Shown: piece by piece, positions 20,008-36,859 of the stretch
Layout: each line of letters opens with the position of its first letter
Numbering within the stretch: the stretch's first letter is position 1
Source: an uncultured Gemmatimonadaceae bacterium
GTDB lineage: Bacteria; Gemmatimonadota; Gemmatimonadetes; Gemmatimonadales; Gemmatimonadaceae
Reading direction: 5' to 3'
DNA length: 64,000 nt
NCBI GenBank assembly: GCA_963740355.1
Contig: CAVUDW010000003.1
Span: forward strand, 704,001-768,000
The notes under the pieces: generated by a model
The model's input: the letters and a program-made list of their open reading frames with translations, nothing else
Database searches by the model: none
Told to the model about the DNA's origin: nothing
Position numbers and translations under genes: made by a program

Positions 20008-20302
20008 TCGGTGGGACTCTGCACGGGTACGGGCTGGCGCGGATCCGTGCGCGCGCGCAGGGGCGACCAAGCCTGCTGGGAATGCTCGGCCGGAAATTGG
20101 CGTTATGCAGCATTCTCGGACGGCCTGGTGCGGCCAGGCAATCCGACGCGAAATCGCAAGTTGTTGGTTTGTCTGGAGATACGCCGGCGTTTCGCCCGGG
20201 GAGAGTTTGATACGCCCGGATTTCGGTGACGTATAACGCTGGCGGCGCAGTGATACGAAGCTGTAGAATCAGGCAATAGGTTCTATTCTGTGCAATTAAG
20301 GG
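20008..20302 (+). promoter_or_regulatory. Conserved non-coding array leader, copy 1 (putative integron Pc/attI region)
   Basis: Colinear homology to 27131-27421. Ends TAGAATCAGG..GGTTCTATTCTGTGCAATTAAGG, then GCTAGAC just before the first small ORF. Confidence 0.6.
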
Positions 20303-20323
20303 CTAGACGCCCCGGAGGCATAG

Positions 20324-20653
20324 GTGCGAAAGTTGGCGCTGTACCTGGTGGGCTTTGCGATCGCGCATGTGCTGATCAACGTCGGCTTGACGATCGTGAC
20401 CTTCGGTGCAGTGATGCAGGGATTCGATGGCGGGCCAGTCGCGCCGCCACGACTGGTGTCATTCCTCATGACCGCCGTGGACGTCTTGAACTGGCCCTTG
20501 CGGTACCTGGCCCGTCCGACGATGTCAGGTCCGATGCAGTATGCGGTGCTGTTTGCCAACGGTCTGCTTTGGGCCATTGCGACCGTGTGCGTGTATGGCG
20601 CGATTCGCCACGGCCTGTCGCGCGACTTGCCTCCCGCAACTACCGCGGCGTAG
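20324..20653 (+). CDS. Small hypothetical membrane protein (putative cassette)
   Basis: GGAGG RBS before GTG; two to three hydrophobic segments. Confidence 0.7.
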   Translation: MRKLALYLVGFAIAHVLINVGLTIVTFGAVMQGFDGGPVAPPRLVSFLMTAVDVLNWPLRYLARPTMSGPMQYAVLFANGLLWAIATVCVYGAIRHGLSRDLPPATTAA

Positions 20654-20754
20654 CTGGATGGCAAACGTGGTGTTCACTCTGGCACGGTCAACTGGCGATG
20701 CACCATCGCAAGGCACGCTGACGGTGGCCCTGCCCCCAGACGTGGGCAGTCCGC

Positions 20755-20850
20755 GTCTTACCCGGGTTGCTGCTGCCAATGCGGCCGGCCATTGTTGAGC
20801 AGGATTAGGATCAGAAAGCCGCATTGCAGCAGAACCCCGTTACGTTGGCC
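20755..20850 (+). mobile_element. attC-like recombination site
   Basis: GTCTTAC..GGGTTgCTGCTGcCAATGCGGC-loop-GCCGCATTGCAGCAGAACCC..GTTGGCC; the stem pairs perfectly except for two extrahelical bases on one arm. Confidence 0.7.
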
Positions 20851-20870
20851 CGAACCTAGAGGTGCGTCAC

Positions 20871-21222
20871 ATGCCATCGTATTCCAAGGCGAGCACCGTC
20901 GCGATCGTTGCGGCTCTCGCTGTTGACGTTCGGCGCCGTCGCGATCGTCCGGCCTGCGATGATTGGCTGGACTATGCTTATCGGGTTCGGGGGTGCAGGG
21001 CTTGTCTTTTTGCTCGGTGCGGGAGGCGTTGCGCGCCGACGTACTTCCGTGGCGTTTGGCGTGTACATGATCGTCTGCGCGGCGAAGTTTGGTACGGCAT
21101 TCGGTGGACCGGTCGCACCGCGATGGTTCGGGCGCTCGCTCACGCCACTGCTGCTCCTCGCAGTCGCGTGGTTCATTTACGAGTCGCGTCAAGACCGTGC
21201 TGGTAGCGTGCAGAGAGTTTGA
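20871..21222 (+). CDS. Small hypothetical membrane protein (putative cassette; possible frameshift near 20920); homolog of 34440-34826
   Basis: ATG with GAGG RBS at 20871, while the hydrophobic ORF continues in the 20908 frame; RR..AFG.YM..CAA.F motif. Confidence 0.55.
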
Positions 21223-21351
21223 GCACGCCCCTTTTGGTGGCAAGGCACGCCAGCAGGTGCACCGTGGGTTGGCCGACGGTCTACCCCGATTGTCGGTTCA
21301 GGCTAACGCAGTTTCGTTAGGCCGATCCCAACCATTCATGTGAGGTGAGTC

Positions 21352-21843
21352 ATGTTGCAACCGACCGTTCGGGTTTTTGCGCTCGTGCTGTCCGTGATCA
21401 TCGTGGCTCCCGCTCGCGCGCAGCGCAGCGAGGTGCTGTCACGGGCGCCGGCGCTGCACTGGACATTTGAGCAGCCGGAACCCGCAGCGCGAAATGAGCG
21501 GTCGAAGCCGCAGAGCCCGGCTGCGGTGGATCTTCTCCCCGTGTGCGCCATGCCAACGGCAGGCGCCGCATCAGTCGAAAGCGCGCCGATGCCAATAGCA
21601 CGCAGCGACTCGGCAAGGATGGACCGCATGCCGATCGTGCCGTCGCACTGCCGGATAGCGCGGACCGAGTCTTTTGCCCCGCTGGTGTGGACAGCCTCCG
21701 CCGTCGATCCTCGGCCTGCCTGCACCATGCCCGTGGCGCAGGCCGGCGATGCCGACAATATGCCGATGCCGATCTCGCGCACCGACACGACGAGACTCGT
21801 GCCGATGCCGGTTGCGCCATCGCAGTGTCGCAACGTACCGTAG
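21352..21843 (+). CDS. Secreted protein with duplicated Cys-Met-Pro domain (putative cassette)
   Basis: Signal peptide ending ARA-Q; two copies of C-x-MP-x11-MP-x11-MP-x5-C; preceded by GTTAGGC at 21316. Confidence 0.75.
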   Translation: MLQPTVRVFALVLSVIIVAPARAQRSEVLSRAPALHWTFEQPEPAARNERSKPQSPAAVDLLPVCAMPTAGAASVESAPMPIARSDSARMDRMPIVPSHCRIARTESFAPLVWTASAVDPRPACTMPVAQAGDADNMPMPISRTDTTRLVPMPVAPSQCRNVP

Positions 21844-21851
21844 GCGCGCAC

Positions 21852-21929
21852 ATCTACCGCGGACGTAGCGCCCAGTAAGCAAGAGTTCGGTCGGTACCCT
21901 GCATCGGCTTACGCCCTGTCTCGTTAGAC
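21852..21929 (+). mobile_element. Degenerate attC-like site
   Basis: ATCTACC just after the stop, GGACGTAGCGCC / GGCTTACGCCC arms, GTTAGAC core at 21923-21929. Confidence 0.5.
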
Positions 21930-22000
21930 CGCTCCGCTCGTCGCGCCCCGAGCACCAGAGACTGGTGAAACCCAGCCGCTGGGTTTCGTGTATCCAGACG

Positions 22001-22264
22001 ATGACTACCGTGCTGGTGGTCGCGGGGTTCCGTGTCCGCATCCTGCTCCCACCGCGGGAGCATCCGCCACCGCACGTCCACGTGACGCGCGGTGGCGCTG
22101 AGGTCGTACTCTTGCTGCCGGACGGGCGGGCCGGCGTCGTGGTGCGCACCGTCTACCGCATGCGCGATGCGGATGTCATCGCGGCCGTTCGACTGGTAGA
22201 GTCGAACGCGGACCTGCTCCTACACGCCTGGAGGACCTATCATGGCGATTCGACGACTGAGTGA
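22001..22264 (+). CDS. DUF4160 family putative toxin (HicA-like fold)
   Basis: GFRVRI...REHPPPHVHV motif and C-terminal W...H; overlaps the DUF2442 gene. Confidence 0.85.
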   Translation: MTTVLVVAGFRVRILLPPREHPPPHVHVTRGGAEVVLLLPDGRAGVVVRTVYRMRDADVIAAVRLVESNADLLLHAWRTYHGDSTTE

Positions 22265-22712
22265 TGCAGAAATCCTGCAGCAAATTCCGCCCGCCCGTGT
22301 GGCGGAGCAGGCAGCTCGCAAGCGCGGCCACCGGGCGCGTGCCGTCCGGTTTGATCGGGCGAAGGGACGAGTCGTGCTGGAGCTCTCGAGCGGTGTGCTG
22401 TTTGCTTTCCCGATTGCCGGCATACCAGCATTGCGCCGTGCAACGCCGGCGCAACTCGCGCAAGTAGAAACGAATGCGTCGGGCAGCACGCTGCGGTGGA
22501 ATGCCATAGACGTGGACATGAGCGTCGCCGGGTTGTTGCTGGCGGCGGTTGATCCGGCGGAGCGGCGGCGATATCTCGCATCGCTCGCCGGGCACGCCAC
22601 CTCGCCCGCCAAGGCGGCGGCCGCACGGGTCAATGGTGCAAAAGGCGGCCGGCCGCGGAAGGCGGCGAGTGGCGCGTTGCCGACGCTACGGCGCAAACCG
22701 ATCGCGGGCTAA
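22242..22712 (+). CDS. DUF2442 family putative antitoxin
   Basis: LELSSG...P.L..ATPAQL..VE....G..LRW..IDVD.SV.GLL; C-terminal SPAKAAAARVNGAKGGRPRK. Confidence 0.88.
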   Translation: MAIRRLSDAEILQQIPPARVAEQAARKRGHRARAVRFDRAKGRVVLELSSGVLFAFPIAGIPALRRATPAQLAQVETNASGSTLRWNAIDVDMSVAGLLLAAVDPAERRRYLASLAGHATSPAKAAAARVNGAKGGRPRKAASGALPTLRRKPIAG

Positions 22713-22805
22713 CCCAGTTTCGTTCGCGGTTTCCGCCCCAGTTCCGCTTGACGCCAGCAGGTGGTCGGGTGCGTCTTACTCGTAAGATTCACTCCCCGAG
22801 CCCGT

Positions 22806-23069
22806 ATGGCCGACGCTGCCACCACGACCCTGTCGTCCAAAGGACAGGTCGTCATCCCTGAAGAGATTCGCGCCCGGCTTGGGCTCAAGACCGGCGCTCA
22901 GTTCGTCGTGGTCGGCGACCGGGACGTGGTCATCCTCAAGGTGCTCGAGCCCCCAGCGCTGTCGGAGTTTGCCGCCCTGACGGCCACGGCGCGTCGGGCC
23001 GCCAGGAAGGCCGGGCTCACACGACGGGATGTGACGAAGGCGGTGACGAAGGTGCGGCGCGGCAAATGA
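22806..23069 (+). CDS. AbrB/MazE/SpoVT family antitoxin
   Basis: TTLSSKGQVVIPEEIRARLGLKTG. Confidence 0.9.
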   Translation: MADAATTTLSSKGQVVIPEEIRARLGLKTGAQFVVVGDRDVVILKVLEPPALSEFAALTATARRAARKAGLTRRDVTKAVTKVRRGK

Positions 23070-23180
23070 GAGTGGTCGTGGACACCAACGTGCTGGTGTC
23101 CGGCCTGCTCTTCGGCGGGGTGCCTGAGTAGATCCTGGTGGCGTGGACATCCGGCGCGTTCGTGCTTGTTGTGGCAAGTA
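23066..23180 (+). pseudogene. PIN-domain (VapC-like) toxin remnant with premature TAG
   Basis: MRVVVDTNVLVSGLLFGGVPE-TAG(23129-23131)-ILVAWTSGAFVLVVAS; PIN similarity is lost after this; ATGA-coupled to the antitoxin. Confidence 0.8.
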
Positions 23181-23604
23181 GCTGTGCGCTTGCGCTCGTG
23201 CTGCTTGTCGGCGAACGCCTACTAGCCTCCGACGACGAAGTGTTTGCTATCAGCCGGAATACTTTTGCTTTCTGGATTGCGACTGGCGCCGTCGCAGTTG
23301 TCTGCGGAGTTCGCGGCGGACAGCGCCTGCTGCACACGCGGGACTCCCACGGCGATGTGAGACAGTATGCGCGTGACCGGAGACGCACCTACCGCGTTCG
23401 CGTGCGAAATGTGCCGCCGGGAGGGGGCAGTTCGAACACATTTGACCTTATTCTCCTCGACCCGCCGATTCCATGATTCAGCGCGACAGGCGATGGCTAG
23501 CGGTCAGGCCGGGGCGCACGCACGCGGGTTACGGGCAATGCGCTGTGCTCAGCGTCGCGCTGCAGCAGCCACCTGACTCGGCAGGCCACTTCGCTCGGTA
23601 TCTG

Positions 23605-24183
23605 ATGCCTGCCTCAAACTGCCTCCGACGTCGAGCAAGTGTGCTCGCTAGCGCAGCGCTCCTTGTTTGCATGAACCTGCGCGCACAGCCCGTTGAGCGA
23701 TCAGTGGGGCTCGGCCTCACGTTGCCCGCCGGAGACTACGCGAAGTTCCGGACGATCGGTCCAGCCGTGCGCGCTGGTGTCGCGTTCGGTGATCCAGACA
23801 CACGGCACGTCCGACTGCGCCTCGAGTTCGAAGCGGCGTGGCTACTGTCCCGCGGATCGAAACCGGGATTTGCGAACTCGGACCCAGGTTCACTCACGGC
23901 GACGAGTTTCCTGGCATCCGCCGTTTTCGGTCGTCGTCCCCGCGAGGGATTTGCGCCCTACTTCATCACTGGCGTCGCGCTGCAGAGCCTGACAATACCG
24001 GGAAGGCGCAATCCGTATGGATCGACTATTGGGTTGCGCGTTGGTGCGGGCATGGAGCGCCGCGTGGCCGCTCGACACTACTTCGTCGAGATCGCGCCAC
24101 ACCTGGCTCTGACTGACTTTGGCACGGGAGGCGATTTCGGCACGGCTGCGTACGTGCCGCTCGTGGTCGGCCTGCGCTTCTAG
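23605..24183 (+). CDS. Putative outer-membrane beta-barrel protein
   Basis: Signal-like N-terminus, alternating beta strands, APYFITGV, C-terminal VVGLRF. Confidence 0.65.
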   Translation: MPASNCLRRRASVLASAALLVCMNLRAQPVERSVGLGLTLPAGDYAKFRTIGPAVRAGVAFGDPDTRHVRLRLEFEAAWLLSRGSKPGFANSDPGSLTATSFLASAVFGRRPREGFAPYFITGVALQSLTIPGRRNPYGSTIGLRVGAGMERRVAARHYFVEIAPHLALTDFGTGGDFGTAAYVPLVVGLRF

Positions 24184-24262: not shown

Positions 24263-26899
24263 TCAGCGCCCCAGGAACGTGCGCGCCGCAGCCGTCACTG
24301 GGTGCGTCGGGCCGTAGCCATTGGTCAACGCCGTCACCGCCCGCTCCGCAGTACGCATCGCGTCAGCCTGCGCGCCCTGAGCGCGTTGTACGCGCGCATG
24401 CAAGAAGTCCGCGTGGCCCACGATGGCGCTGCGCGTCGATGCCAGCGAGTCCACTATCGCCAGCGTCCGCACGCGTGATGCCGCGGCGTCGGCACCTTGC
24501 AGGTCACCGTCGATGAATCGCCACTCGCCGAGCGTTAGCATCGGGAAGATGAAGAACGCCCGCGGAATGGACGCATCGGGCCAGAGCGAGTCGATAGCGA
24601 CGGCGAGGCGCTTCACTGGTTGCAGGGAATCGCCGGTTTGTCGGGCGATGCGCAGGCGCACCCATTCGCGTGTGAGCCAGTGCCACGGATACAGCACTTC
24701 GGCGCGTGATGCGAGGAGGCTGGCATCCTGGACGCGACCACTTTCGAGCGCGGCCCATGCGGCGTTTACGTCGTTGGTGACCTTCGCATTCTCCCCGAGA
24801 GGACCTTGGGCGGCGAGCGCGATCCACTGGCTCGCCGAGTCCGTCAGGCCTGCTCGCAGCAGAACCTGTCCATACACGTGGGCGAGATACGGCGCCACCG
24901 GTGCAGCGCCGTTCTTGCGTTCCGCGCGCAGTACGATCGCACGATAGCTGGCAACGGCCTCCCGCATCTCCCCGAGGTCGAAGTACATCCGGGACATTGC
25001 TGCGGCGACGTTCGGTACAATCGGCGTGCCCAGATACCCCATCGATTCGGCCTCGGCGACAACACTGCGCTGCACCGCCAGTGCCTCCCTCGGGCGACCA
25101 GCCTTCTGAACGATGAGACCGAGACTGTTGAGGATGGCGAGTCGATTGAGCGATCGCTTCGACGCGCCCTCGCTGCGCTCCCCGTCGTCAAATACGACTA
25201 CGGCCTCTTTCAAGAGTGCGATGGCGCGTTCGTAGTCATTGTCCACCGCCGCCAGATCGCCTTCTGCCTGCAAGCAGAGGTGCGCATTCGCCTTCGGCCC
25301 GATCCGCGCCAGCGCTGCGCGACCTTCTGCAATGGCGGCCCGCGCCGAGTCGATCGCTCGCGTACGCATGAAATTTTCAGCGCGCGTGCACGAAATCGAC
25401 GCCGCGATGTCGAGTTCGCCCGCCGTGTAAGCGATGGCACGGGACCGGGCGAGCAGTGCAAGAGAGCCACCAACGTCGCCGTTTTCGAATAGTTGTCCCG
25501 CAAGGTCCGTCATTACGAGCGCAGCAGTGCGGGGTTCGGAGCCGAACTGTTGCTCGATCACGTCCACTGCGTGCATCAGGCGTCCGCGCGCATCGAGCGG
25601 CTTGCCGTCCACTCCAGGCGTGTCACTGGCAAGCACCTGCGCCGCCGCGAGGAAACCCTCCTGCGCGCGAAAATTTCGCTCGGCCACGCGCCGTTGCCGC
25701 TCCGCCTCCGACCGCTGGCGATAGGACACGACCGTCGCGGTGACCAGTGCAGCGCCCACCACGGCGGCGACCGCAAGTCCCACCCGATAACGCCTCGCGA
25801 ACTTCGCGGCGCGGTATCCCAAGGCATCTGGGCGGGCGGACACCGGCTCATGATTGAGCCAACGGCGCAAGTCGTCTGCCATCGCCGCAGCGGTCTCGTA
25901 GCGTTCCCCAGGCACCTTGCGCAGCGCCTTTCGCAGGATGGCATCAAGGTCGCCGAGTTCCGTGAGCGCGGGTTCCTGTTGCAACGCGCCCTGTGCGTAC
26001 TCCGCTCTGGTGGATGCGCCGCGAGCGGTTGGATGACGATTCGTGAGCAGCAGATACAGCATGACACCGGCGCTGTAGATGTCGGATGCCGGGCCAATCG
26101 CCTCGCCACGGAACTGTTCGGGCGATGCAAACGCCGGTGTCAACGCTTGATGCCCCTGCTCCGTCACGTCAGCGATGTTCCCTTCGCTGGCGATGAGGCG
26201 CGCGATCCCGAAGTCGAGCAACTTCACCGTACCATCTCGCGTGACCAACACGTTCGACGGTTTCAGGTCGCGATGCACGATCAGGTTCGCATGCGCATGT
26301 CCGACTGCGGAGAGGACCTGCAGCATAAGCTGTACGCGCTGCGCGATAGTAACGGTTGTGCGCGTGGCGTACGCATCGATCGGTTCGCCGTCGATGTATT
26401 CGAGCACGAGGAATGGCTGACGCTGATCGCTCACTCCCGCATCGAGCAGACGCGCAACATTCACGTGTGCAAGTCGAGCGAGGGCCGTCCCTTCGCGACG
26501 GAAGCGCTCGATCCCCGAGCGCCCGATCAGCGACAGGTTGAGGAGCTTGACCGCGGCCGATCCTTCAAAGCTGCCATCTGCCCGTGTTGCGAGCCACACA
26601 CTCCCCATGCCGCCGTGCCCGATGGGCCGATCGAGCATCCAGGCGCCAATCCGCATCCCGGCCAGCGACGGTTCGCGTTCGAGCATCGCTGCCAGTGAAG
26701 GCATCGCGGCGAGGGGCGCGGAACCAGCGCCCTTCCAGGTATCGCCAGACCGGAGAATCTCGCCGAGGGCCTGCACGACCGTCGCGCTTTCACGCTGCAA
26801 GTCATTCAGCCATCGGGTTCGGTCCTCCGGCGGAAGATCCAGCGCCTGATCGAGCAGTGGACTGAGTCGCGCGTACAACGATTCCGACAGCGATGACAT
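24263..26899 (-). CDS. Serine/threonine protein kinase with TM segment and TPR-like C-terminus
   Basis: IGHGGMGSVW, AVK, HRDLKPSNVLV, DFGIA, SPEQ, DIYSAG. Confidence 0.95.
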   Translation of the reverse strand: MSSLSESLYARLSPLLDQALDLPPEDRTRWLNDLQRESATVVQALGEILRSGDTWKGAGSAPLAAMPSLAAMLEREPSLAGMRIGAWMLDRPIGHGGMGSVWLATRADGSFEGSAAVKLLNLSLIGRSGIERFRREGTALARLAHVNVARLLDAGVSDQRQPFLVLEYIDGEPIDAYATRTTVTIAQRVQLMLQVLSAVGHAHANLIVHRDLKPSNVLVTRDGTVKLLDFGIARLIASEGNIADVTEQGHQALTPAFASPEQFRGEAIGPASDIYSAGVMLYLLLTNRHPTARGASTRAEYAQGALQQEPALTELGDLDAILRKALRKVPGERYETAAAMADDLRRWLNHEPVSARPDALGYRAAKFARRYRVGLAVAAVVGAALVTATVVSYRQRSEAERQRRVAERNFRAQEGFLAAAQVLASDTPGVDGKPLDARGRLMHAVDVIEQQFGSEPRTAALVMTDLAGQLFENGDVGGSLALLARSRAIAYTAGELDIAASISCTRAENFMRTRAIDSARAAIAEGRAALARIGPKANAHLCLQAEGDLAAVDNDYERAIALLKEAVVVFDDGERSEGASKRSLNRLAILNSLGLIVQKAGRPREALAVQRSVVAEAESMGYLGTPIVPNVAAAMSRMYFDLGEMREAVASYRAIVLRAERKNGAAPVAPYLAHVYGQVLLRAGLTDSASQWIALAAQGPLGENAKVTNDVNAAWAALESGRVQDASLLASRAEVLYPWHWLTREWVRLRIARQTGDSLQPVKRLAVAIDSLWPDASIPRAFFIFPMLTLGEWRFIDGDLQGADAAASRVRTLAIVDSLASTRSAIVGHADFLHARVQRAQGAQADAMRTAERAVTALTNGYGPTHPVTAAARTFLGR

Positions 26900-27130
26900 G
26901 AAAGCGGTGTTGGAGACCTGGATCGCCCAGCGGCAGAGACCAGCGTAGACATCACGGCTCACCAAGAATCACCTCGGGACCACCGTTGCCAAGTGCCCCG
27001 CGTCAGATGGCCGGGCCATCGAACCGAAGCACACACGTCTCAGGAATCGAAAGATCTGGGCCGAAGGCGACAAGACCTGCCAGTGATCGGCAGCCGCGGA
27101 GGCTCGGCGACGAATGCACTGTCACCGCAT

Positions 27131-27421
27131 TCGGTGGCACTCTGCGCGGATTACAGGGCGTTACCCTGCGCGCGTAGGGGCGACCAAGCCTGCTGGGAGT
27201 GCTCGGCCGAAAATCGGCGTTGTGCAGCAATCTCGGAGGGCGTGGTGCGGACTGGGACGGCGACGTGGAATCGCAAGTCGTTGGTTTGACTGGAGATACC
27301 TCGGCCGCTTCGTCTGGGAGGGGAGGACGATACGCCCGGATTGCGGTGACGTATGGCGCTGGCGGCGCAGTGGTGCGCAGCTATAGAATCAGGCGACTGG
27401 TTCTATTCTGTATAATTATGG
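27131..27421 (+). promoter_or_regulatory. Conserved non-coding array leader, copy 2 (putative integron Pc/attI region)
   Basis: Colinear homolog of 20008-20302; contains TAGAAT (27384) and TATAAT (27411-27416). Confidence 0.6.
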
Positions 27422-27588
27422 ATTCGGCGGCGACCAACACAGCCTCCCGTTGAATGTTCCCGAGCGATACCCTCCCTCGAACTCGTAACCCTCGACGTAC
27501 ACGAGACCGTGGCTTCGTCGCGGCGGTTGGAACGTTGATGCCCAAGCGATCGTCACGCACACCGAGCGGCCGCACAACGCGCCCGGCC

Positions 27589-27888
27589 ATGGAACGGCTG
27601 GCACGTGGCTTAGCCATCGCGTCCTGCTGTGCATTCGCTGCCTGTAACGACGGCCCAACCGCAACGCCCACACCCGTCACACGCGGTGCGCCCGGCATCA
27701 CCATCTGCGCCGGTCGACTGGCCGGCGTCGCGACGCGGCAGCTTGCAAGCGGCTGGTGGGTTCACGAGGCTAGAGCTCAGCACGGTGTGGCTCCCGGCCG
27801 ATGTGCGTCCATCAGCGACACTCCAGCAGGTCGCCGCAGCGTGTCGGGCGTCCATCGACGTCGACACAGCGAAAGGCCACGGGCTTGA
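27589..27888 (+). CDS. Possible lipoprotein (uncertain, possibly frameshifted/decayed)
   Basis: MERLARGLAIASCCAFAAC lipobox-like start; the downstream sequence is not convincing. Confidence 0.3.
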   Translation: MERLARGLAIASCCAFAACNDGPTATPTPVTRGAPGITICAGRLAGVATRQLASGWWVHEARAQHGVAPGRCASISDTPAGRRSVSGVHRRRHSERPRA

Positions 27889-28032
27889 CGTCACACTGAC
27901 GCGACATGGAGCGCAAGCGGCACTGCAGCTTCGCTTGCCGGAATGCGAGGTCCTGCAGTGAACGTGGGTCGCGCTAGTCTGCGTCGGTTTGCCAGCTACT
28001 TAAGCGATACGCTGAACACGAACCTCAAATAC

Positions 28033-28707
28033 ATGATTCGCCAGCGTTCGATTGTCTCTCTTCTGCTCATCCTCGCAGCTGCTGCGCCCGCTGCAACGGC
28101 TCAGGTATCGCGTGAGGTGCGCCTACCTACGCGCACGGACACACTCGTGGCACGCTACGGCACCACGATCATCGGTCGTGGGATCACGGCGCGCGCCTAT
28201 CGCGGAGGCGAGTTGCAGCAGGCCTACGTGTGGCAGAGCGCCGCCGATGGATCGAGCACCACGGATTCGCTTTGGCTCGACACCATGTCGGTGCAACCGT
28301 GGCGCGAAGTGCGGGTTATTTCTGACACCGCAGTGCGCATCACCTTTGGGAAGGGTCGTGTAGACGTTCGTACGATAGTCGCCGGACGCGAGACCAGTCG
28401 GCGTGGCATCAGTGCCCCGACGCCGTACCACTCGTCTGCCTCACTCGAGGTGATCGCCGCCAGTATGCAGATGCAAGTGGGAGCGACGGCCGACGTGAAT
28501 GCATACTATGCGCCGCCATCCAACTTGGGGTTTCAGGTGATCCGCCTGCGCGTCGTCGCCCGCGACACGGTGCGCGGCACGGATGCCTGGCGTGTCGTTG
28601 CGAGCACGCCGACCGGTAGTACCACATTCTGGATCAGCGCAACAAGTCGTGAGGTGTTGCAGTATGACGTCCGTGAAGGAGCGGCGCTGATCACATTTCG
28701 TCGCTAG
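28033..28707 (+). CDS. Secreted hypothetical protein (DUF3108-like)
   Basis: Signal peptide ATA-Q; C-terminal DAWRVV....TFWIS..SREVLQ. Confidence 0.7.
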   Translation: MIRQRSIVSLLLILAAAAPAATAQVSREVRLPTRTDTLVARYGTTIIGRGITARAYRGGELQQAYVWQSAADGSSTTDSLWLDTMSVQPWREVRVISDTAVRITFGKGRVDVRTIVAGRETSRRGISAPTPYHSSASLEVIAASMQMQVGATADVNAYYAPPSNLGFQVIRLRVVARDTVRGTDAWRVVASTPTGSTTFWISATSREVLQYDVREGAALITFRR

Positions 28708-28710
28708 TTC

Positions 28711-28807: not shown

Positions 28808-28837
28808 GCTAGTTCCACCCGAGAAGCGAGTTGTCTG

Positions 28838-29335
28838 GTGACGCGTATCCTGCGCGGGGCGATGTGTGGTCTGGCGCTCTACGCCGCAGCGTGTGCCCGC
28901 ACCGCGCCGCCGTTTATCGCCGATGCTGGATCAACCACCATCAACATCAGTGAACAGGCCGCGGCCGCTGGATTCCATCCCGACGCTTGGGTCGCATCCA
29001 TGGGCGCCGTTGCGGCGGTGGAAATCCAGAATCAACCGGTCCGCGTGGTCCATGTAGTGCCGAGCCGGCTGCGGGTGCGTCTCGGAGACACGATTGCGCC
29101 ACTCCACGTGATTCGCGTGAGCGGTCTGGATTCAGCCGGGACAAACATCCCAGGCGTGACACCGCTGTTCGGCCCGTTCCGCCCAAGGGGCGTCGTACGT
29201 CCGCTTCCAAATGGGCTGTGGCTCGCGGAGCGCGTCGGTCAATCGGACGTTGAGGTTCGCGTCCTACGGATTGCCCACGTTGTGAGCAACGACACCGCGA
29301 TGGTTCGGTCGGTGACGGTAGAAGTTGTGCCGTAG
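28838..29335 (+). CDS. Hypothetical lipoprotein (putative cassette)
   Basis: LALYAAAC lipobox; flanked by attC-like sites. Confidence 0.65.
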   Translation: MTRILRGAMCGLALYAAACARTAPPFIADAGSTTINISEQAAAAGFHPDAWVASMGAVAAVEIQNQPVRVVHVVPSRLRVRLGDTIAPLHVIRVSGLDSAGTNIPGVTPLFGPFRPRGVVRPLPNGLWLAERVGQSDVEVRVLRIAHVVSNDTAMVRSVTVEVVP

Positions 29336-29344
29336 GGCGGGCGA

Positions 29345-29442
29345 ATTCAACCCCGGGTTGCTGCTGGCGCTGCGGCCGACGTATTCTGAGCAGGAGAGCC
29401 ATTTGTCTGCCGAAGCTGCAACAAAACCCAGTGTGGTCAGAC
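29345..29442 (+). mobile_element. attC-like site, same family as 20755
   Basis: ATTCAAC-CCCGGGTTGCTGCTGGCGCTGCGGC..GCCGAAGCTGCAACAAAACCC..GTCAGAC. Confidence 0.65.
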
Positions 29443-29478
29443 CTCACGCCAATCGCATCGGCACAAGATCCCATACCC

Positions 29479-30141
29479 ATGATGAGTCGACCGTTTCGAT
29501 GGGTGCGGCAGTACGGTGTGCTCGTTGCGGTCACTGCGCTGAGCCTGTACTACCTCTACCGAGCGGTCCACTACCGGTTTGTAGTCCCGGATCGACTTGG
29601 GCCTGCCCTGTTCAACAAGCAGGTGTGGTACGTCTCGCACCTGCTATTCGCCCTACCCGTCGTCCTCGGCGCGCCATTGCAGTTCATCGCACCCCTGCGA
29701 CGACGAGCACCGCAGTGGCATCGGGCGATCGGCAAGTGCTACGTCATTGGTGCGTCCGGTGCAGCCGTCTTGGCGATATACCTCGGGGCGATTGTCGGCG
29801 AGTATGAAGGCTCGAGGCTTTCCATCGCACTCACGGGACTGCTGTGGCTGTTCTTCACGCTGGCGGCGTGGCGGTTGGCCGTGGCGAAGAACTTCGCTGC
29901 CCATCGCGAATTCATGATTCGCAGCTACACGATGGCGCTCGTGCTCGTATGGTTGCGGCTGATGTACGACTGGCAGGACCTCCTGTTCTTTTACGTTACA
30001 AATCCAGACTTACGCGACGCGACGCGCGAATGGGCATCGTGGGTTGTGCCGCTCCTCGCGGTCGAGATGTGGCTGGCCTGGTACCCGGCCATCCGCAAGG
30101 GCCGAACGGCAGGTCCAAGTCCGGGGCCGCGCCAAGTGTAA
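29479..30141 (+). CDS. DUF2306-like membrane protein
   Basis: H....LGAPLQF...LRRR.PQWHRAIGKCY, AHREFMIRSY, SWVVPLL..E. Confidence 0.8.
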   Translation: MMSRPFRWVRQYGVLVAVTALSLYYLYRAVHYRFVVPDRLGPALFNKQVWYVSHLLFALPVVLGAPLQFIAPLRRRAPQWHRAIGKCYVIGASGAAVLAIYLGAIVGEYEGSRLSIALTGLLWLFFTLAAWRLAVAKNFAAHREFMIRSYTMALVLVWLRLMYDWQDLLFFYVTNPDLRDATREWASWVVPLLAVEMWLAWYPAIRKGRTAGPSPGPRQV

Positions 30142-30232
30142 CCCGGGTTGCTGCAGCCATGGCGACCGAGGTATTGTGAACATTACGGCCATTAGTCGGT
30201 CGCCGTGCAGCCGCCCCCCTTTCCAGTCAGAC
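30136..30232 (+). mobile_element. attC-like site, same family as 20755
   Basis: GTGTAAC (contains the TAA stop)-CCGGGTTGCTGCAGCCATGGCGACCGA..TCGGTCGCCGTGCAGC..GTCAGAC. Confidence 0.65.
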
Positions 30233-30265
30233 GGAAGCCATCCGCCACGCTCGCTCGCGGAGAAC

Positions 30266-30718
30266 ATGTACAGATTGAAGAATTGGCCGCACATGTGGCT
30301 TCTGGTCGTAGCGTTTGCGGCAGCACCGCCCGTCGTCGCGCAGCAGTCCGAGTCCATTCCGATAGGCGCGCGCGTGCTCGTCACGCTCCGCGATTCGCTA
30401 CGCCCGTGGCTGTTTTCCGCGCGAACGACATCGCTCATTGGCACCACGATTGCCACAAGTTCGGACCAACTCACACTACGTCTCGCGAGCTCGGATACGG
30501 TTCGAATCTCGCGCGCGTCCGTTCGCGCGGTGGCCATCAGCCGTGGTGCATCTCGCGGACGGAGCTCCCTGCAGCAGGCAGCGTTCGGCGCGCTGGTGGG
30601 GAGCGTGGCCTCCATAGGCAAGCAGAAGCAGTGGGTCGGTGTCATCGCTGGGGCTGGAGTCGGCGCCGTCACCGGGTTTGTCGCGCCGTACGAGCACTGG
30701 CGGCGTGTCCGCTGGTGA
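30266..30718 (+). CDS. Secreted hypothetical protein with glycine-zipper C-terminus
   Basis: Signal peptide, GARVLV, GALVG..IAGAGVGAVTG, EHWRRV end. Confidence 0.7.
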   Translation: MYRLKNWPHMWLLVVAFAAAPPVVAQQSESIPIGARVLVTLRDSLRPWLFSARTTSLIGTTIATSSDQLTLRLASSDTVRISRASVRAVAISRGASRGRSSLQQAAFGALVGSVASIGKQKQWVGVIAGAGVGAVTGFVAPYEHWRRVRW

Positions 30719-30878
30719 AGGCGACTGTCGTCGCGCGCGACTGCCGTCTACCCCTGCTTTTTTGGATAACTTGTGTCGGTCTGGGCGAGCCAAATCTGGA
30801 TGACCATTTACATGGGGTGCATGGGACACCGTGGCAAAGTCTGAGGCATACGCGCGGATCAAGGCCTATGGCGGAGCG

Positions 30879-31376
30879 ATGAGTTACGTACGATGCCTCT
30901 TGGATGGTCTCGAGCGAGGCCGCCTCATTCTGCTTGTAATCTTCCTTTTCGGCCACACCGCCGCCGCGGGCGCGCAGGGAGCGGTGGACCGCCCGCGCGA
31001 CATCACGCCGATCTCGGTGGTCCGAAAGTACGTGGCGGCGTTCAATGCCAAGGATCTGGACGCCATGATGAGCGTGGTCGCGAGCGACGTGGTCTGGATG
31101 AGCGTGGCTGGCGACTCACTGACCGATGTTGGGCGCGGGATCGACGCGTTTCGGCAGATGATCGCGGGATACTTTCGTGCCGTGCCGTCCGCGCGCTCGG
31201 AGCTGCGCAAGATCGACGCGACCGGGCCATGGGTGACGACGCACGAACGAACGCGCTGGGCAGCGCCGCCATCCGGCGTCGGTGGACAGACCAGCCTCGT
31301 AGTCTACGAGGTCCGCGACCGACTCATCCGGCATGCATGGTTCTATCCGTCGCTTCCGGTTCCGGGCTCCCCATAA
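30879..31376 (+). CDS. SnoaL/NTF2-like protein, secreted
   Basis: VVRKYVAAFNAKDLDAM, VYEVRDRLIRHAWF. Confidence 0.8.
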   Translation: MSYVRCLLDGLERGRLILLVIFLFGHTAAAGAQGAVDRPRDITPISVVRKYVAAFNAKDLDAMMSVVASDVVWMSVAGDSLTDVGRGIDAFRQMIAGYFRAVPSARSELRKIDATGPWVTTHERTRWAAPPSGVGGQTSLVVYEVRDRLIRHAWFYPSLPVPGSP

Positions 31377-31638
31377 CGACGATTGGTGATCGATGACTGG
31401 GCCAATCAACGGACTCCAGTCGCTGCAGACACTCACCCGTCGAGTCACGACGACTCACGTGAACAGGAATGCGCGTGCGACACTCTGTGCGTGAACAGCC
31501 GGGAACACGATTGACACAGTGGTCTGAGAACATGGTCGACCGAAGCGTGTTCGCTGTTTGATGCCATCCCTTCGTCGAAGGTGACCACCTCCACCGAACG
31601 GAAGTAGATCGTACGCACGCATTTCTCCCATCCATGGC

Positions 31639-32052
31639 ATGTCCCATCTCGATCTCGTCGCACTGATTGTGCCGGATTACGATTCCGCAATCGCGTTCTT
31701 TGTGAACGTCTTGCAGTTCGACCTCGTGGAGGACATCCCCTCGCTAACGAACGACGGTCGGCCGAAACGCTGGGTGGTGGTGCGCCCAGCGGGCGGCGTC
31801 ACCGGAATCCTGCTGGCCCGCGCGGACGGCGAAGCACAGGCCGCGATCGTCGGTCAACAGTTCGCGGGGCGTGTGGGCTGCTTCTTGCGCGTCGACGATT
31901 TTGACGCGACCTACACTCGCATGGTCGCGGCGGGCGTAGTGTTCGTGACGCCCCCGCGCGCGGAGCCGTACGGGCGAGTCGCAGTCTTCCTTGACGTGGC
32001 CGGCAATCAATGGGACTTGCTCAGTCGCGTCGCGCAACAACCAATCGAATGA
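31639..32052 (+). CDS. VOC/glyoxalase family protein
   Basis: VPDYDSAIAFF, KRWVVVRP, EPYGRVAVFLDVAGNQWDLL. Confidence 0.92.
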   Translation: MSHLDLVALIVPDYDSAIAFFVNVLQFDLVEDIPSLTNDGRPKRWVVVRPAGGVTGILLARADGEAQAAIVGQQFAGRVGCFLRVDDFDATYTRMVAAGVVFVTPPRAEPYGRVAVFLDVAGNQWDLLSRVAQQPIE

Positions 32053-32358
32053 GTGGCACTGCGGCCCAGGACCCTGCTTCTTGTGTCCGTGAACTCCCAA
32101 GTCGCGGTCCGCGCGCAGTCGTCCTTGCTGAGACTGGAAACGCTCGCTGCTGCATGGAGTGGGTCTCGGGCGGCCTCGCCCATTCGGCTGACAACATGGC
32201 AAGCCGCGCTGACGCGAAGCGGCTAGAAGTCGCATGTTGCTCCCTACCCCGCTTGCGCGCGACACGACGGCGGCGCTAACCTCAGGAGGCGTGGAGGCGA
32301 CCCATCGCATCGTAGCACCACGCCATAGCCAGCCATCCCTCGCGCCTCGGGAGTGACC

Positions 32359-32892
32359 ATGCTGCGTCGATGCATCCTCGCGCTCTGCCTCGCCGCATCG
32401 CCGGCAGTTGCGCAAACGGCCGAACGTGACCTGCCAAACGGAAAGGAATTGGTCGTCGTCTACATCGGCGCGACCAGCTGCGGGCCATGTCTCCTCCCCG
32501 CGACGAAGGCGGCAGTGGCGCGCATGAAGACACTGCTCGCCAGCTTCGCGACGAAGAACGGCTATGCATTCTCTGCAGTCGGTGTTTCCACGGATTGGGT
32601 GACCGCAGATGGGATCAAATTCCTCAATGACAATGCGCCGTTTGACCAGCTCGTGATCGGCGGCAACTGGACCAACCTCGCGGTCGAGCACTACATCTGG
32701 CGCGATTCGTCAGCGAATCCGGCAATGCCGCAAGTCGTGGTGCTCGAGCGCTCGGTCACGCTCGGCGATCGCATAGCGATTTCCCCTGCGCGTGTGCTAC
32801 GTCGTGTGTTCGGAAGCGATGAAATTCCAAAGTGGGTCGAGGCGGGCGCGCCGGTGGCACTCGCTGCCGCTCCGGCACCAGCGCGGCGCTAG
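32359..32892 (+). CDS. Secreted thioredoxin-fold-like protein
   Basis: Signal AVA-Q, VVYIGATSCGPC, MPQVVVL cis-Pro-like motif. Confidence 0.65.
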   Translation: MLRRCILALCLAASPAVAQTAERDLPNGKELVVVYIGATSCGPCLLPATKAAVARMKTLLASFATKNGYAFSAVGVSTDWVTADGIKFLNDNAPFDQLVIGGNWTNLAVEHYIWRDSSANPAMPQVVVLERSVTLGDRIAISPARVLRRVFGSDEIPKWVEAGAPVALAAAPAPARR

Positions 32893-32897
32893 CAATC

Positions 32898-33416
32898 ATG
32901 TCAGTACTTCGACGCCTGCGAGGCCTGGTCGGCACCGCGCTCACGTGGGGAGGTATCGGCGTCATCGCTGGTGTGGTCGCCTTTGTGGCGGTCTACCGCC
33001 CGTGGCCGCTGCCGGCGGAATACTTGCCGCGCGCGCTGCAGCTATTCGCGAAGTGGGAACTCGCTTCCTTCGTTTGGGGGGTCGCCAGCGGCCTGTCATT
33101 CGGACTGGTCGTCCTGGCTCTCGAACGCACAAGCCGGTGGCCGCAGCTGAGCAGGGCGCGCATCACCGCGTGGGGCGCGCTCGCCGGCGGACTGTTTCCA
33201 GCGCTGCTCAGTATCCGCCCACTGCTCGTCGGCGCGAGCACGACCTACTTCGGCCTCATCATCGGCGCCAGCGCCCTGGCCGGAGCAGCGTGGGCGCGCG
33301 CGTCGTTCGCACTGGCACGCCGCGTCCCCGACGAAACGCCGCAGTTGGTACTGCCGCGAGAATCAGCGGAACCGCTGTCGAGCCGAGCCTCGGCAACCCA
33401 CAATCGAGCTTCGTAG
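32898..33416 (+). CDS. Hypothetical membrane protein
   Basis: LRRLRGLVGTALTWG, WGALAGG; four hydrophobic segments. Confidence 0.7.
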   Translation: MSVLRRLRGLVGTALTWGGIGVIAGVVAFVAVYRPWPLPAEYLPRALQLFAKWELASFVWGVASGLSFGLVVLALERTSRWPQLSRARITAWGALAGGLFPALLSIRPLLVGASTTYFGLIIGASALAGAAWARASFALARRVPDETPQLVLPRESAEPLSSRASATHNRAS

Positions 33417-33502
33417 CAACGCGCAGCAGTGTGGCGCAGTCTGTGACCACATCGCAACCGGGCAGGTATTTCGTTCGACTCGATATGGTGAGAGATTTTC
33501 GA

Positions 33503-34015
33503 ATGCGACCATCCGTCCGATTGTTACCGTTGTGCCCCCTTTTCAGCTGCATCGTCGGCGCTGGCTGCACGCGTAGCACGGAACCCGCCGACTCGGTTCC
33601 GAGCGTTCTGGTCGGCACATGGATCGGTGACACGATCCGGTTGACGCCGAGAGGTACAACCGCACTCACGCTGCGGATTGAGGCGTCGGGTCGGTTTGCC
33701 TGGAGCGTGCGAACGGCTGGTCTGTTCGCCAATCAAGCACCGGACGAGCTAACCGGAGGCACACGTGAAGTGGGGCAGCTCACCATCGTTGGTCAACGCG
33801 CCCGCTTCCGTTCAGACTCGCTCTACATTGCAAATTCTGTCGACAAGGTCGAGTCGGCGCGCCGCATCACGTCGGCGAACGATGGCTTCGGGAGTGCAAC
33901 ACTATTCGACCAAGCCGAGTATGTCGTTGCCGGCGACAGTCTCCACTTGAGCTATTTCTCATATCCGGCGGACGCGCCAGTACGCACATCGCTTCGGCTC
34001 ATCAGAAGTCGGTAG
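33503..34015 (+). CDS. Hypothetical lipoprotein (lipocalin-like)
   Basis: IVGAGC lipobox, LVGTW, YPADAP. Confidence 0.65.
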   Translation: MRPSVRLLPLCPLFSCIVGAGCTRSTEPADSVPSVLVGTWIGDTIRLTPRGTTALTLRIEASGRFAWSVRTAGLFANQAPDELTGGTREVGQLTIVGQRARFRSDSLYIANSVDKVESARRITSANDGFGSATLFDQAEYVVAGDSLHLSYFSYPADAPVRTSLRLIRSR

Positions 34016-34019
34016 GCCC

Positions 34020-34427
34020 ATGTCTTCGGCGTGGGCAGTGGTCTTCGTGGCTGCGATCGCGGGAGCGTGTGTCACGCCGACGGAGGCGTGCGGCTGTGTC
34101 GCTCTGCCGAGCGTGTTACGTGTTCTCGGCACGGTGAGGGACGTACAGGGCGCTCCTGTCGCCGCGGCGCGTGTTTCGATACTCAATCGGCCAGTTGGCT
34201 TCCCTTCGGCACCTTTCTCTACGGTCGGGCGCTTGGCATTTGAGACGGATTCGCGTGGCAGCGTCGCCGGTGAGACTACGAGCCCGACACCCGGTAAATA
34301 TGAGATCCGAGTGACGGTCGTGCGTCGCGGTGCAGCGGACACCGTCGTGCGCGTTCCTGGCGTTGCCGAATTACGGCCGCCGGCTGGTCGAGTCGACACG
34401 CTCCGCATCGCGATTACCTTGCCGTAG
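34020..34427 (+). CDS. Lipoprotein with carboxypeptidase-regulatory-like domain
   Basis: IAGAC lipobox, GTVRDVQGAPVAAARV, TDSRG, PGKYEIRV. Confidence 0.65.
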   Translation: MSSAWAVVFVAAIAGACVTPTEACGCVALPSVLRVLGTVRDVQGAPVAAARVSILNRPVGFPSAPFSTVGRLAFETDSRGSVAGETTSPTPGKYEIRVTVVRRGAADTVVRVPGVAELRPPAGRVDTLRIAITLP

Positions 34428-34439
34428 GCGACATCGCAG

Positions 34440-34826
34440 GTGAACGTTCACGGCGCGAGGCGCTACAGCGTGGGAACGAAGACTCAGTCGCGGGCCATAA
34501 CCATATCCCAGTACGTCTTGCTCGGCACTGTCGTCGGTGCCTCCTTCGTGCTGCCGTTCGACTCGGCGCTGCGAAGTTGGATCACTCTTGTTGGCTTCAC
34601 GCTGCTTGGCTTCATGTTCGTCAGCGGAACCGTCAGCATGCAACGTCGCTCAGCGCTCGCTTTCGGTGCGTACATGTTGACGTGCGCGGCACAGTTCTCC
34701 GTTCCGCACCTGTGGCGCACGCGGCCGGATTGGTGGGATGCCAGAATGCTGCATGTCACGTTCGCGGTCGTTTGCTGGCTCATCGTCGCAGTATTGCTCG
34801 ACCGACGGTCGTCTTCGGAAGCGTAA
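34440..34826 (+). CDS. Small hypothetical membrane protein, homolog of 20871-21222
   Basis: Four TM segments; RRSALAFGAYMLTCAAQF. Confidence 0.6.
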   Translation: MNVHGARRYSVGTKTQSRAITISQYVLLGTVVGASFVLPFDSALRSWITLVGFTLLGFMFVSGTVSMQRRSALAFGAYMLTCAAQFSVPHLWRTRPDWWDARMLHVTFAVVCWLIVAVLLDRRSSSEA

Positions 34827-35000
34827 GACACTTGTGATGCGCTTGTCGCACCGGTCGGCCGCATCGCTTCGGCCCTTCTCGTCGCGGGCCGTCACACTTT
34901 CGATAGGTGCGACCACGCATTCCTTCGGAGCCGCTCCCCGAAGGTCCCCGGCAACGAATCGCGCTCGCCCTTGCCGTGATCGACCGACGACGCAGACACG

Positions 35001-35366
35001 CTACCCAACGCGCAGAATCTTTTCCATTTTCCGCCCCTTCGCCAACTCGTCGACCAACTTGTCCAGATAGCGCACCTGCTGCGTCAATGGGTTCGTCAGC
35101 TCCTCAACCCGATAGCCGCAGATGAGCCCCGTGATCAGATGCGCGTTGGGATGGAGAGTCGCTCCCTGAAAGAATTTTTCGAAGGTCACTCGCTCGCCGA
35201 GGAAGGACTGCAGCGTCGTCTCGTCGTATCCAGTCAGCCAGCGGATGACCTGATGCAACTCGTCACGAGTCCGTCCTTTCTTCTCGACCTTGGCCAGATA
35301 GTGCGGATAGACCGACGAGAACGTCATGCTCGCAATCCGCGAGTCGTGGGTGGCTGCGTTGCTCAT
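35001..35366 (-). CDS. DUF2200 family protein
   Basis: MTFSSVYPHYLAKVEKKGRT, WLTGY, ITGLICGYRVEE, RYLDKLVDELAKG. Confidence 0.92.
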   Translation of the reverse strand: MSNAATHDSRIASMTFSSVYPHYLAKVEKKGRTRDELHQVIRWLTGYDETTLQSFLGERVTFEKFFQGATLHPNAHLITGLICGYRVEELTNPLTQQVRYLDKLVDELAKGRKMEKILRVG

Positions 35367-35614
35367 GGTAGCGATGGAGGTGCCGATCTCGGCGTGGGTA
35401 AGGACGCTACGGCTTTGGGCGAGCCGGTTCCGGAGCACTCGAATTCGTAGTTCGTGAAACGGATGCACGCAACTGAGCAGCCTCGTTCGTGCGTTGCCGA
35501 AGTACGGGCGGCCTTGGTATCGTATCGAATGGAGTAGACATTGCAATTCGACGCGTCAGCGCCTAATCCGCCAAGGCGCATATCGCCACACGCACCCGGC
35601 ACCACGCACGAGTC

Positions 35615-36166
35615 ATGCGCCCATTCGCGATCGTTTCCGCCACCGTGATGCTTCTCTGCGCCTGCCAAGCGGCTGAACCGCTTCGGCAGCAAAGCGCGCG
35701 CGAGGAGCGCCTGATGGCACTCGATTCGCTCGCCCGAACGCACACCTGCGCGAAAGTGCGTGCAGCGCTGCTCTTTGACCAAGGGGTCTGGACCAGAAAG
35801 CAGGCCTGCGCACTCGCGGGTCGCGCACTTGAGATTCTCGGCAGTGCGCGAGCGCGCGAGCCGTACATGGCGCCCGGCGACACGGCGCGCGTGAGTACGA
35901 TGCGGGTGACTCGCCAGCACTGGTGTCAGCTCTTGGAAATGCCGGGCGGCCCCCCTGCAGGTCGCATGGACTCACTGCTGTACGTCGTCGATTTTGAGAT
36001 TCCTGATCGGCCACGCTACCTCGGCGTTTTCATGCGGGCGCGAGGATTCACCGGCAGCGCGACGTTCGATGCACATCCGCGTGGTGTCTGGGGAAGTCCG
36101 ACGCACTTGACGCAGCCGACCGAGGGACCGGACACAATTGAGGCGGGTGAGCCCTGCGGGATGTAG
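35615..36166 (+). CDS. Hypothetical lipoprotein
   Basis: MLLCAC lipobox. Confidence 0.55.
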   Translation: MRPFAIVSATVMLLCACQAAEPLRQQSAREERLMALDSLARTHTCAKVRAALLFDQGVWTRKQACALAGRALEILGSARAREPYMAPGDTARVSTMRVTRQHWCQLLEMPGGPPAGRMDSLLYVVDFEIPDRPRYLGVFMRARGFTGSATFDAHPRGVWGSPTHLTQPTEGPDTIEAGEPCGM

Positions 36167-36388
36167 TGCGGCGGTTTCTTTTCCGCGACAGCGCGACCTG
36201 CGTCCGAGGTTGGAATTGCGCGAGGCGAACTAGCCATCTAGCCGGTACGGATATCTCCGGCGTGCAGACGTATTTAGTGGCGCCCCGTAGCCGTTCGACC
36301 GTCGACTCGCTCGCTTCCGTCGTGCTTGCCTTCACAGCTTCCGTGTGGGCAGCTGCTGTGCCGTTGCTCGCCTCTTCAAAGGATCCCT

Positions 36389-36859
36389 ATGTCAGGTCGA
36401 GATATCCCTAGCCTGTTCGGTTGGGCCGGTGGCATGCCGGCGCTCGAGGCACTCACGGCGCGATTCTACGAGCGCGTCAAGTCGCACGACGTCCTCGCCG
36501 AGGTCTTTCTGCACATGGATGCGCATCACCCGCACTTCGTCGCCCAGTTTCTGGCGGAAGTGCTCGGTGGCCCGGCCGAATATTCCGCGCATCGTGGCGG
36601 CCATCCGCACATGATTCGCCAGCATCTCGATCGCCACCTGACGGACGTGCAGCGCAAGGCGTGGATGCAGCTACTGCTCGATACCGCCGACGATGTCGGC
36701 CTGCCGTCCGACCCGGAATTCCGCTCCGCACTCGTCGGCTATGTCGAATGGGGATCGCGCCTGGCAGTCATCAATTCTCAACCCGGTGTGGCCGCCGAAG
36801 CTGATCTCCCCATGCCTCGCTGGGGTTGGGGCGTGCCCGGCGGACCATACCAGCCGTGA
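36389..36859 (+). CDS. Group II truncated hemoglobin
   Basis: SLFGWAGG, FYERV, EVLGGP.EY, M..QH, EFRSALVGYVEWGSR. Confidence 0.9.
   Translation: MSGRDIPSLFGWAGGMPALEALTARFYERVKSHDVLAEVFLHMDAHHPHFVAQFLAEVLGGPAEYSAHRGGHPHMIRQHLDRHLTDVQRKAWMQLLLDTADDVGLPSDPEFRSALVGYVEWGSRLAVINSQPGVAAEADLPMPRWGWGVPGGPYQP

Follow-up and report, generated by a model that had tools for sequence, protein, structure and literature searches.

Two runs of short genes without an integrase

We analyzed a 64,000-nucleotide stretch of the genome of an uncultured Gemmatimonadaceae bacterium (G000:C3:704001–768000, hereafter the window; positions given without a contig are window positions). G000, the genome under study, comprises 5.45 Mb in 5 contigs with 65% G+C, and comparisons within its genus covered 20 genomes; 40 relatives were used for the blastn leader search described below. 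The window holds about 21 short plus-strand open reading frames (ORFs) in two runs, 20324–24183 and 27454–36859, which are split by a minus-strand gene for a 900-aa Ser/Thr kinase (24263–26965). Each run is preceded by a copy of the same leader. An earlier reading of this DNA, made from its letters only (the sequence-only reading), had compared this arrangement to integron arrays of the type called CALINs (attC clusters without a nearby integron integrase). Our results indicate that both runs are probably genuine integron cassette arrays without an integrase, each headed by an orphan attI region of about 300 nt.

Conservation across the genus extends to the genes up to 19981 (ankyrin, MBL-fold and lipoprotein genes) and to the gene at 37054–37698. 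Between the core genes at 19511–19981 and 37054–37698 lie 17 kb that are absent or different in G016 and G006, so gene order is not conserved across the relatives here. Pfam matches within the runs include DUF4160/DUF2442, a MazE-like antitoxin, DUF3108, DUF2306, SnoaL, VOC and globin; many of the other ORFs have N-termini that resemble a signal peptide, carry a lipobox or are hydrophobic. Codon-usage scores of the run ORFs were low compared with those of the flanking genes, using a gene finder trained on G000 itself. These counts and contents agree with the sequence-only reading, which had described about 20 short ORFs almost all on the plus strand. The second run includes at least one real minus-strand gene, DUF2200 (35001–35546).

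No tyrosine recombinase is encoded in the window, as that reading had stated. All four PF00589 matches in G000 lie elsewhere in the genome, and only one of them is recognized as an integron integrase (TIGR02249 score 386 bits, cut-off 265; C3:2343237–2344169, minus strand); no TIGR02249 match falls in the window, and nowhere in it does an intI gene adjoin an attI site and an array. The search for an integrase elsewhere, which the sequence-only reading had proposed, revealed a single, complete intI gene (C3:2343144–2344166), approximately 1.6 Mb from the window. It belongs to a complete integron (C3:2327937–2344166; L010, L011) consisting of intI, attI and 16 attC sites on a single strand. The layout is unusual: the cassettes of this main array lie downstream of intI and on the same strand, and in this genus intI does not diverge from its array but precedes it in the same orientation. 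In a protein atlas, the cluster closest to this IntI is mostly from Gemmatimonadota, which we regard as a lead only. A far larger array of the same type, with about 50 attC sites whose scores drop away from intI, is present in G016 (C5:1020487–1050860).

Between the cassettes of the main array lie 97-nt repeats with all the features of attC. Their R''/R' boxes follow the CTAAC/GTTAG pattern and their spacer is unpaired; the L''/L' stem contains an extrahelical G, and a variable stem is also present. Thirteen of these sites served to build a covariance model (R1), which contains 25 base pairs and the extrahelical G at column 18. Five of the 25 pairs, all in the variable stem, showed compensatory changes, and GTTAG was invariant in all 13 sites. 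Genome-wide, R1 gave 32 matches at E ≤0.01, namely the 16 sites of the main array, five reverse-strand echoes of these sites, and 11 matches elsewhere that fall at seven loci.

Four full attC sites (97–103 nt) were identified in the window with R1 run with its filters off (E 5e-20 to 3e-10), all on the plus strand and each directly 3' of a plus-strand ORF. By this genus-specific model they have the imperfect palindrome, the boxes, the spacer and the extrahelical base that define attC; the GTT is kept in two of the four, and the other two read GTC (GTCAG). R'' is damaged in two sites (20752–20853 and 28709–28810). Four further plus-strand matches in spacers of array 1 scored 12.5–14.4 bits, individually not significant, and proved to be relics on inspection. 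The hairpins of about 80–100 bp that the sequence-only reading saw in many spacers are thus borne out as four full attC sites and four relics, in only part of the spacers. Array 2 has three attC sites within about 4 kb (starting at 28709, 29343 and 30133; E ≤3e-10), which agrees with the clustering of at least two sites expected of a CALIN. Array 1 has one significant attC and four relics, so on a strict count it is a single-attC locus lacking an integrase (SALIN) with relics. Outside the runs, a weak R1 match (12684–12778; 19.6 bits, E 0.0045) at the 3' end of the core gene 12121–12753 probably reflects a terminator-like hairpin and not an attC.

The leaders as homologs of the attI region

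Leader 1 (20008–20308, 301 nt) and leader 2 (27131–27428, 298 nt), both on the plus strand, correspond to the leader of about 290 bp noted earlier. Aligned by blastn, the two share 80.2% identity over 298 nt (83–86% in ungapped blocks), and their similarity stops exactly where the first cassette starts. No further copy was found in G000 by blastn, nor in the 40 relatives at the blastn/megablast level; homologs were found by profile searches only. A profile of the two leaders detected a third, diverged copy (C2:1435566–1435796) immediately upstream of an attC, as well as a fragment (C3:839217–839387) fused to another attC. At the latter locus (C3:839199–839514; L020 5199–5514), the attI-region fragment is joined straight to the attC with no cassette between them, and it looks like an emptied or rearranged head.

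A leader model (R2) built from the four G000 copies gave exactly two matches with E <1e-6 outside G000, both directly 3' of an intI gene and before attC sites. In G013:C319, the match (7533–7784) lies between intI (6427–7365) and attC sites from 8385 on, and in G007:C107 it lies at 669–903, between intI (1008–1943) and an attC (106–208); in each case all elements are on one strand. The same order of intI, attI region and attC was observed in G016. The attI regions of G013, G007, G016 and G000's own integron all end with the core TAATTCTCGTTAGAC, which occurs with at most one mismatch at 11 places in 7 of the 20 genus genomes (own attI included), compared with none for a reversed control pattern. 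The core lies 279–326 nt beyond the intI stop codon, matching the leader length. In pairwise global alignments, six attI regions were all more similar than shuffled controls, with z of 2.1–10.1 between different loci. Taken together, the intI-linked homologs, the core, the matching length and the alignments above shuffled controls identify both leaders as homologs of the attI region. We infer that a conserved GTnTAAT before the core would be the left arm of an imperfect inverted repeat whose other arm is GTTAGAC, giving the usual layout of attI simple sites.

Other identities of the leader were considered. As a coding sequence, all of its frames are interrupted, and substitutions between the copies are distributed 20/16/11 over the codon positions. 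An Rfam search of 12000–42000 at E ≤1 returned only a spurious miRNA match, which did not fall on a leader, and tblastn with three IntI proteins gave no support for an intI pseudogene. A scan of both leaders for sigma-70 promoters and terminators found no sites. The leader had been proposed to be Pc/attI-like; the attI part of that proposal holds, and the Pc promoter does not appear in the scan.

We then surveyed attI-like sites beyond the window. A hidden Markov model (HMM) of the attI-proximal part (145 nt, 12 sequences) gave seven matches at E ≤1 in the 5.45 Mb of G000, and all seven adjoin an attC. Four are training sequences; the others are C2:1979600–1979683 (E 5.6e-4), C3:839328–839389 (E 0.041) and C2:1692969–1693026 (E 0.22). 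The cores of the C2:1979k and C2:1693k heads, CTCGTTAG, are intact. Consequently, an attI-like site heads six of the seven attC loci that lie outside the integron, versus one intI in the genome. No insertion boundaries can be read at C2:1693k, a locus with a single cassette, since synteny with G016, G009 and G006 breaks off 111 nt from its attI-like head and is not picked up again within 33 kb.

Similar heads occur in the relatives. Of the 20 genus genomes, 18 have intI, with at most four matches per genome, some of them decayed. An attI model (R3) from 14 sequences gave 30 attI-like matches in 11 of the 20 genomes, including 16 non-training matches in relatives. Two of the 16 lie just 3' of intI (G009:C9 and G010:C10), so a leader homolog next to intI, which the sequence-only reading had suggested looking for, is found in G013, G007, G016, G009 and G010, in these five congeners ending in TAATTCTCGTTAGAC. 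Seven of the 16 end at contig breaks; of the nine with a long enough downstream stretch to be tested, seven are followed within about 1 kb by a same-strand attC. In four relatives, five orphan attI sites combine an intact GTT core with a lack of IntI homology over at least 4 kb upstream, and four of the five are followed by high-scoring attC sites (90–102 bits). Near one orphan head in G005, we observed a gene (G005:C169, L051, 1563–4250; 437 nt from the head) that is 58% identical to a PIG-L-domain gene of the window (900 aa, 14685–17387), which G016 lacks at the syntenic position; the accessory gene may travel together with attI heads.

Cassettes and decay along the two arrays

All features of array 1 lie on the plus strand. 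Leader 1 ends with the degenerate core GCTAGAC (20302–20308), which has one base more than intI-linked attI sites. It is followed by an ORF of 109 aa (20324–20653), hydrophobic and without a Pfam match, and a full attC (20752–20853; 79.7 bits) with R' GTTGG and a damaged R'' that reads TAC for AAC. A membrane-like ORF of 104 aa (20908–21222) precedes a 22-nt mini-attC relic (21301–21322) in which the R''/R' boxes are kept and the hairpin is deleted. Next come an ORF of 163 aa with a signal-peptide-like N-terminus (21352–21843) and an attC relic that keeps its 3' half (21849–21932), including an intact R' GTTAGAC (21923–21929), where the G005 similarity of the next cassette begins. This two-gene cassette, DUF4160 plus DUF2442 (21965–22712), is 88% identical to a cassette in a G005 array. 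A second 22-nt mini-attC relic (22707–22728) differs from the full attC of the G005:C168 cassette copy by the exact loss of its central 76 nt, a comparison that supports reading the stub as an attC relic. The following cassette (22761–23131) encodes a MazE/AbrB-like antitoxin (22761–23069) and a PIN-like toxin (23066–23131) that stops after about 22 codons; it is 92% identical to G019:C137, with similarity ending at 23172. A degenerate attC relic with a mutated 3' half (23514–23589, R' GGCAGGC) is the last site detected in this array.

Array 2 also starts on the plus strand, with leader 2 and its degenerate core ATTCGGC (27422–27428). The first ORF (144 aa, 27454–27888) is homologous to a stretch of G018:C237 that is followed directly by an attC. 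A DUF3108 ORF (27943–28707) is followed by a full attC (28709–28810; 55.4 bits) with an intact R' GTTAG and the damaged R'' mentioned above, and an ORF of 165 aa with a lipobox (28838–29335) by a second (29343–29445; 44.8 bits) whose R' is mutated to GTCAG. A cassette encoding a DUF2306 membrane protein (29431–30141), 85% identical in arrays of G014, G019 and G012, carries the third full attC of the array (30133–30235; 50.5 bits), also with R' GTCAG. An ORF of 147 aa, secreted/Gly-zipper-like (30275–30718), has no attC after it. In the SnoaL cassette (30866–31503), the 5' core has decayed to CTATGGC and the attC is eroded, with R' lost; the cassette is 89.6% identical to one in G000's own integron, with similarity extending from the decayed core into the eroded attC. 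A VOC gene (31639–32052) and a further ORF (32353–32892), together spanning 31639–32892, have no attC left, and the G001:C330 homolog of the latter is an attC-flanked cassette. Judging from these homologs, the SnoaL gene and the ORF at 32353–32892 are cassette-derived despite the lack of attC beyond 30236. The remaining short genes (32898–36859), encoding membrane proteins, an Ig-like lipoprotein, DUF2200 (minus strand) and globin, lie within the variable island and show no attC evidence. In the relatives, homologs of the VOC gene, the DUF2200 gene, the globin gene and 32898–33416 have no attC within the flanks examined.

The cassettes that recur in arrays of other species do so at 85–92% identity, with boundaries at attC cores. 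Comparison of the cassettes between relatives, as the sequence-only reading had proposed, thus showed that individual cassettes occur in other arrays of other genomes. Among public sequencing runs, no RNA run is listed as containing the sequence; three runs available as contigs (X1–X3) contain parts at low depth, and the two joints reported had sides of 21–26 nt in attC or other repeats; because these short sides lie inside repeats, the joints are not usable as evidence of excision. Since both attI cores have lost their GTT and most attC sites are damaged, loading of the window arrays in trans at the present day is doubtful. In the window the system is largely a fossil, and its cassettes are becoming ordinary fixed genes of the chromosome.

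Around the arrays, no leader or attC was found next to the kinase orthologs of G019 and G004. In G019:C252 (L014, 6523–11492), the kinase ortholog (83% aa identity) divergently adjoins a DUF2306 gene (82% aa identity to the window cassette), and no attC or leader was detected between the two. Further downstream in the window, four partly overlapping copies of a 70–120-nt repeat with a 28-nt core (39077–39410) lie between a phosphodiesterase-like gene (37930–39051) and a racemase gene; an 18-nt core occurs in three exact copies and nowhere else in the genome, and the stretch is absent from G006.

Origin of the arrays and relation to known systems

In the genus, the attI region sits between the stop codon of the co-oriented intI and the first cassette. 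On the model of integron recombination, the window cassettes would have been inserted singly by IntI, acting in cis or in trans, through recombination of attI with attC at the core that forms the leader's 3' end. Up to the core the leaders match at about 80%, and past it they are unrelated, as would follow from cassette insertion at the core; this stop at the core, with unrelated cassettes beyond it, would be the signature of site-specific insertion after the copies had separated. As the only intI of G000 is 1.6 Mb away, any recombination at the window would have to proceed in trans. IntI in standard assays acts on attI supplied on other molecules, so an intact orphan attI would be usable by a single IntI. 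The sequence-only reading had proposed satellite platforms loaded in trans by a distant intI. That integrase exists, and the leader is an attI homolog; loading itself is plausible and unproven. We consider the odds of past loading in trans to be about even, and those of present activity at the two window heads to be low.

Several observations weigh against the interpretation of the runs as attI-headed cassette arrays without an integrase, or limit its reach. Both window attI cores lack GTT and have gained one base, and as they now stand they may never have been in use. Apart from the SnoaL cassette, nothing is shared with the main integron, and with 89.6% as the best identity no recent cassette exchange with it is visible. 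R1 detected no attC from 30236 to 36859, and only part of the second run is demonstrably made of cassettes, given this gap and its minus-strand gene. No attI-like head could be detected for the lone attC at C2:1421391. The R3 matches G010:C41 and G010:C93:20997 have no attC downstream, and three weak R2 matches (E 0.003–0.009) have neither intI nor attC nearby. R1 is a genus-specific model, and the E-values of the models built here are rough. Finally, the interpretation leaves unexplained how attI copies came to lie without intI.

Two accounts of that last point deserve consideration. In the first, which we hold to be a realistic possibility short of an even chance, the arrays are relics of once-complete integrons: each leader had an upstream intI that was later deleted, and no loading in trans took place. 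Congeners do have up to four intI matches per genome, some decayed (one with an in-frame TAG, one split and two partial), and intI loss is among the CALIN origins given in the available text of Cury et al. (2016; PMC4889954). Such deletions would have had to be clean, however: tblastn with the three IntI proteins found no IntI remnant next to either window leader, and across the genus none upstream of the four tested orphan heads of G000 or of the five in relatives (nine of nine). Leader 1 also starts only 27 nt from the start codon of a genus-syntenic core gene. Moreover, G000 has six orphan heads, and G010 has six attI-like sites besides the intI-linked one, more than the largest intI count in any genome.

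In the second account, which we put forward tentatively and rate somewhat lower, the integron is distributed: one integrase serves many attI sites around the chromosome, with capture and expression of cassettes at several loci. Modules of attI plus cassettes may themselves be spread independently of intI, for instance in the form of circles released by excision from a site upstream of attI to a downstream attC. The window arrays would then be old, burnt-out satellites.

Other explanations fare much worse. It is very unlikely that the arrays are pieces of the main array moved away from intI by chromosomal rearrangement. They share its attC family, and the SnoaL cassette is common to both at 89.6%, but a split array would start with an attC rather than with a 300-nt attI homolog, the main integron keeps its own attI, and SnoaL aside no sequence is common to the window and main arrays. 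Equally improbable is insertion of the cassettes by IntI at secondary genomic sites of the attG type, as proposed for SALINs and small CALINs. That route requires unrelated genomic DNA ahead of the cassette, and at six of the seven G000 loci a conserved homolog of the intI-linked attI, 140–300 nt long, lies upstream of the first cassette; the attG route therefore does not fit, although it may apply to C2:1421391. An ordinary island of small genes with coincidental hairpins and a coincidental repeat, to which the lack of att sites in half of the second run would correspond, can be practically set aside given attC E-values down to 5e-20, consistent strand and position throughout, and boundaries exactly at attC cores in comparison with relatives.

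The window arrays agree with the description of CALINs in the available text of Cury et al. (2016; PMC4889954), that is, clustered attC sites and cassettes with no nearby intI and an IntI elsewhere in the genome; they differ by their recognizable attI-region heads. As far as that text goes, an intI pseudogene is lacking near 95% of CALINs, most integrons have no known attI, and an array retaining its own attI while showing no sign of intI is not among the four CALIN origins given. Chromosomal integrons with a co-oriented intI, such as those of Treponema, have the same order of intI, attI and cassettes as G000 and its congeners (PMC3607928); they belong to another lineage, and the present genus adds many attI heads without an integrase. 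The nearest parallels are decayed Xanthomonas integrons and delta-attI cassettes. According to the accessible text of the Xanthomonas study (10.1101/2025.06.18.660453), the integrase of ancestral arrays is inactivated or lost and CALINs persist at fixed chromosomal positions with a gradual, progressive loss of activity, as here; there the platform occupies a single ancestral locus next to ilvD, whereas several attI-headed arrays in G000 are scattered around the chromosome beside one intact integron. Delta-attI cassettes of mobile integrons, as outlined in the available sections of PMC12901181, carry attI away from intI as a site that can still serve as a recombination substrate; those are fragments in clinical class 1/2 arrays, whereas here whole attI regions head chromosomal arrays. 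The attG route, as far as it is set out in the accessible part of 10.1101/2022.09.11.507474, does not match the window arrays because of the conserved attI homolog ahead of the cassettes. We found no description of attI-headed CALINs in the integron literature examined, which is not a claim that none exists; for integrons in Gemmatimonadota, the literature search returned, in the text available, only reviews mentioning the phylum.

The origin of CALINs is an open question, and because attI is unrecognized in most integrons, whether CALINs have a docking site of their own could not be asked. In this genus attI is recognizable, and such a site is present at six of the seven attC loci outside the integron of G000 and at several loci in relatives. 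These attI heads exclude array fragmentation and random secondary-site insertion for the loci concerned, and two models are left: either intI was cleanly lost time after time, or the attI heads are satellite platforms served in trans. If the satellite model is true, the integron would be a network rather than one locus, and counts of complete integrons would underestimate capture capacity. How cassettes turn into fixed genes can also be followed in the window, where hairpins were deleted, cores mutated and a toxin truncated.

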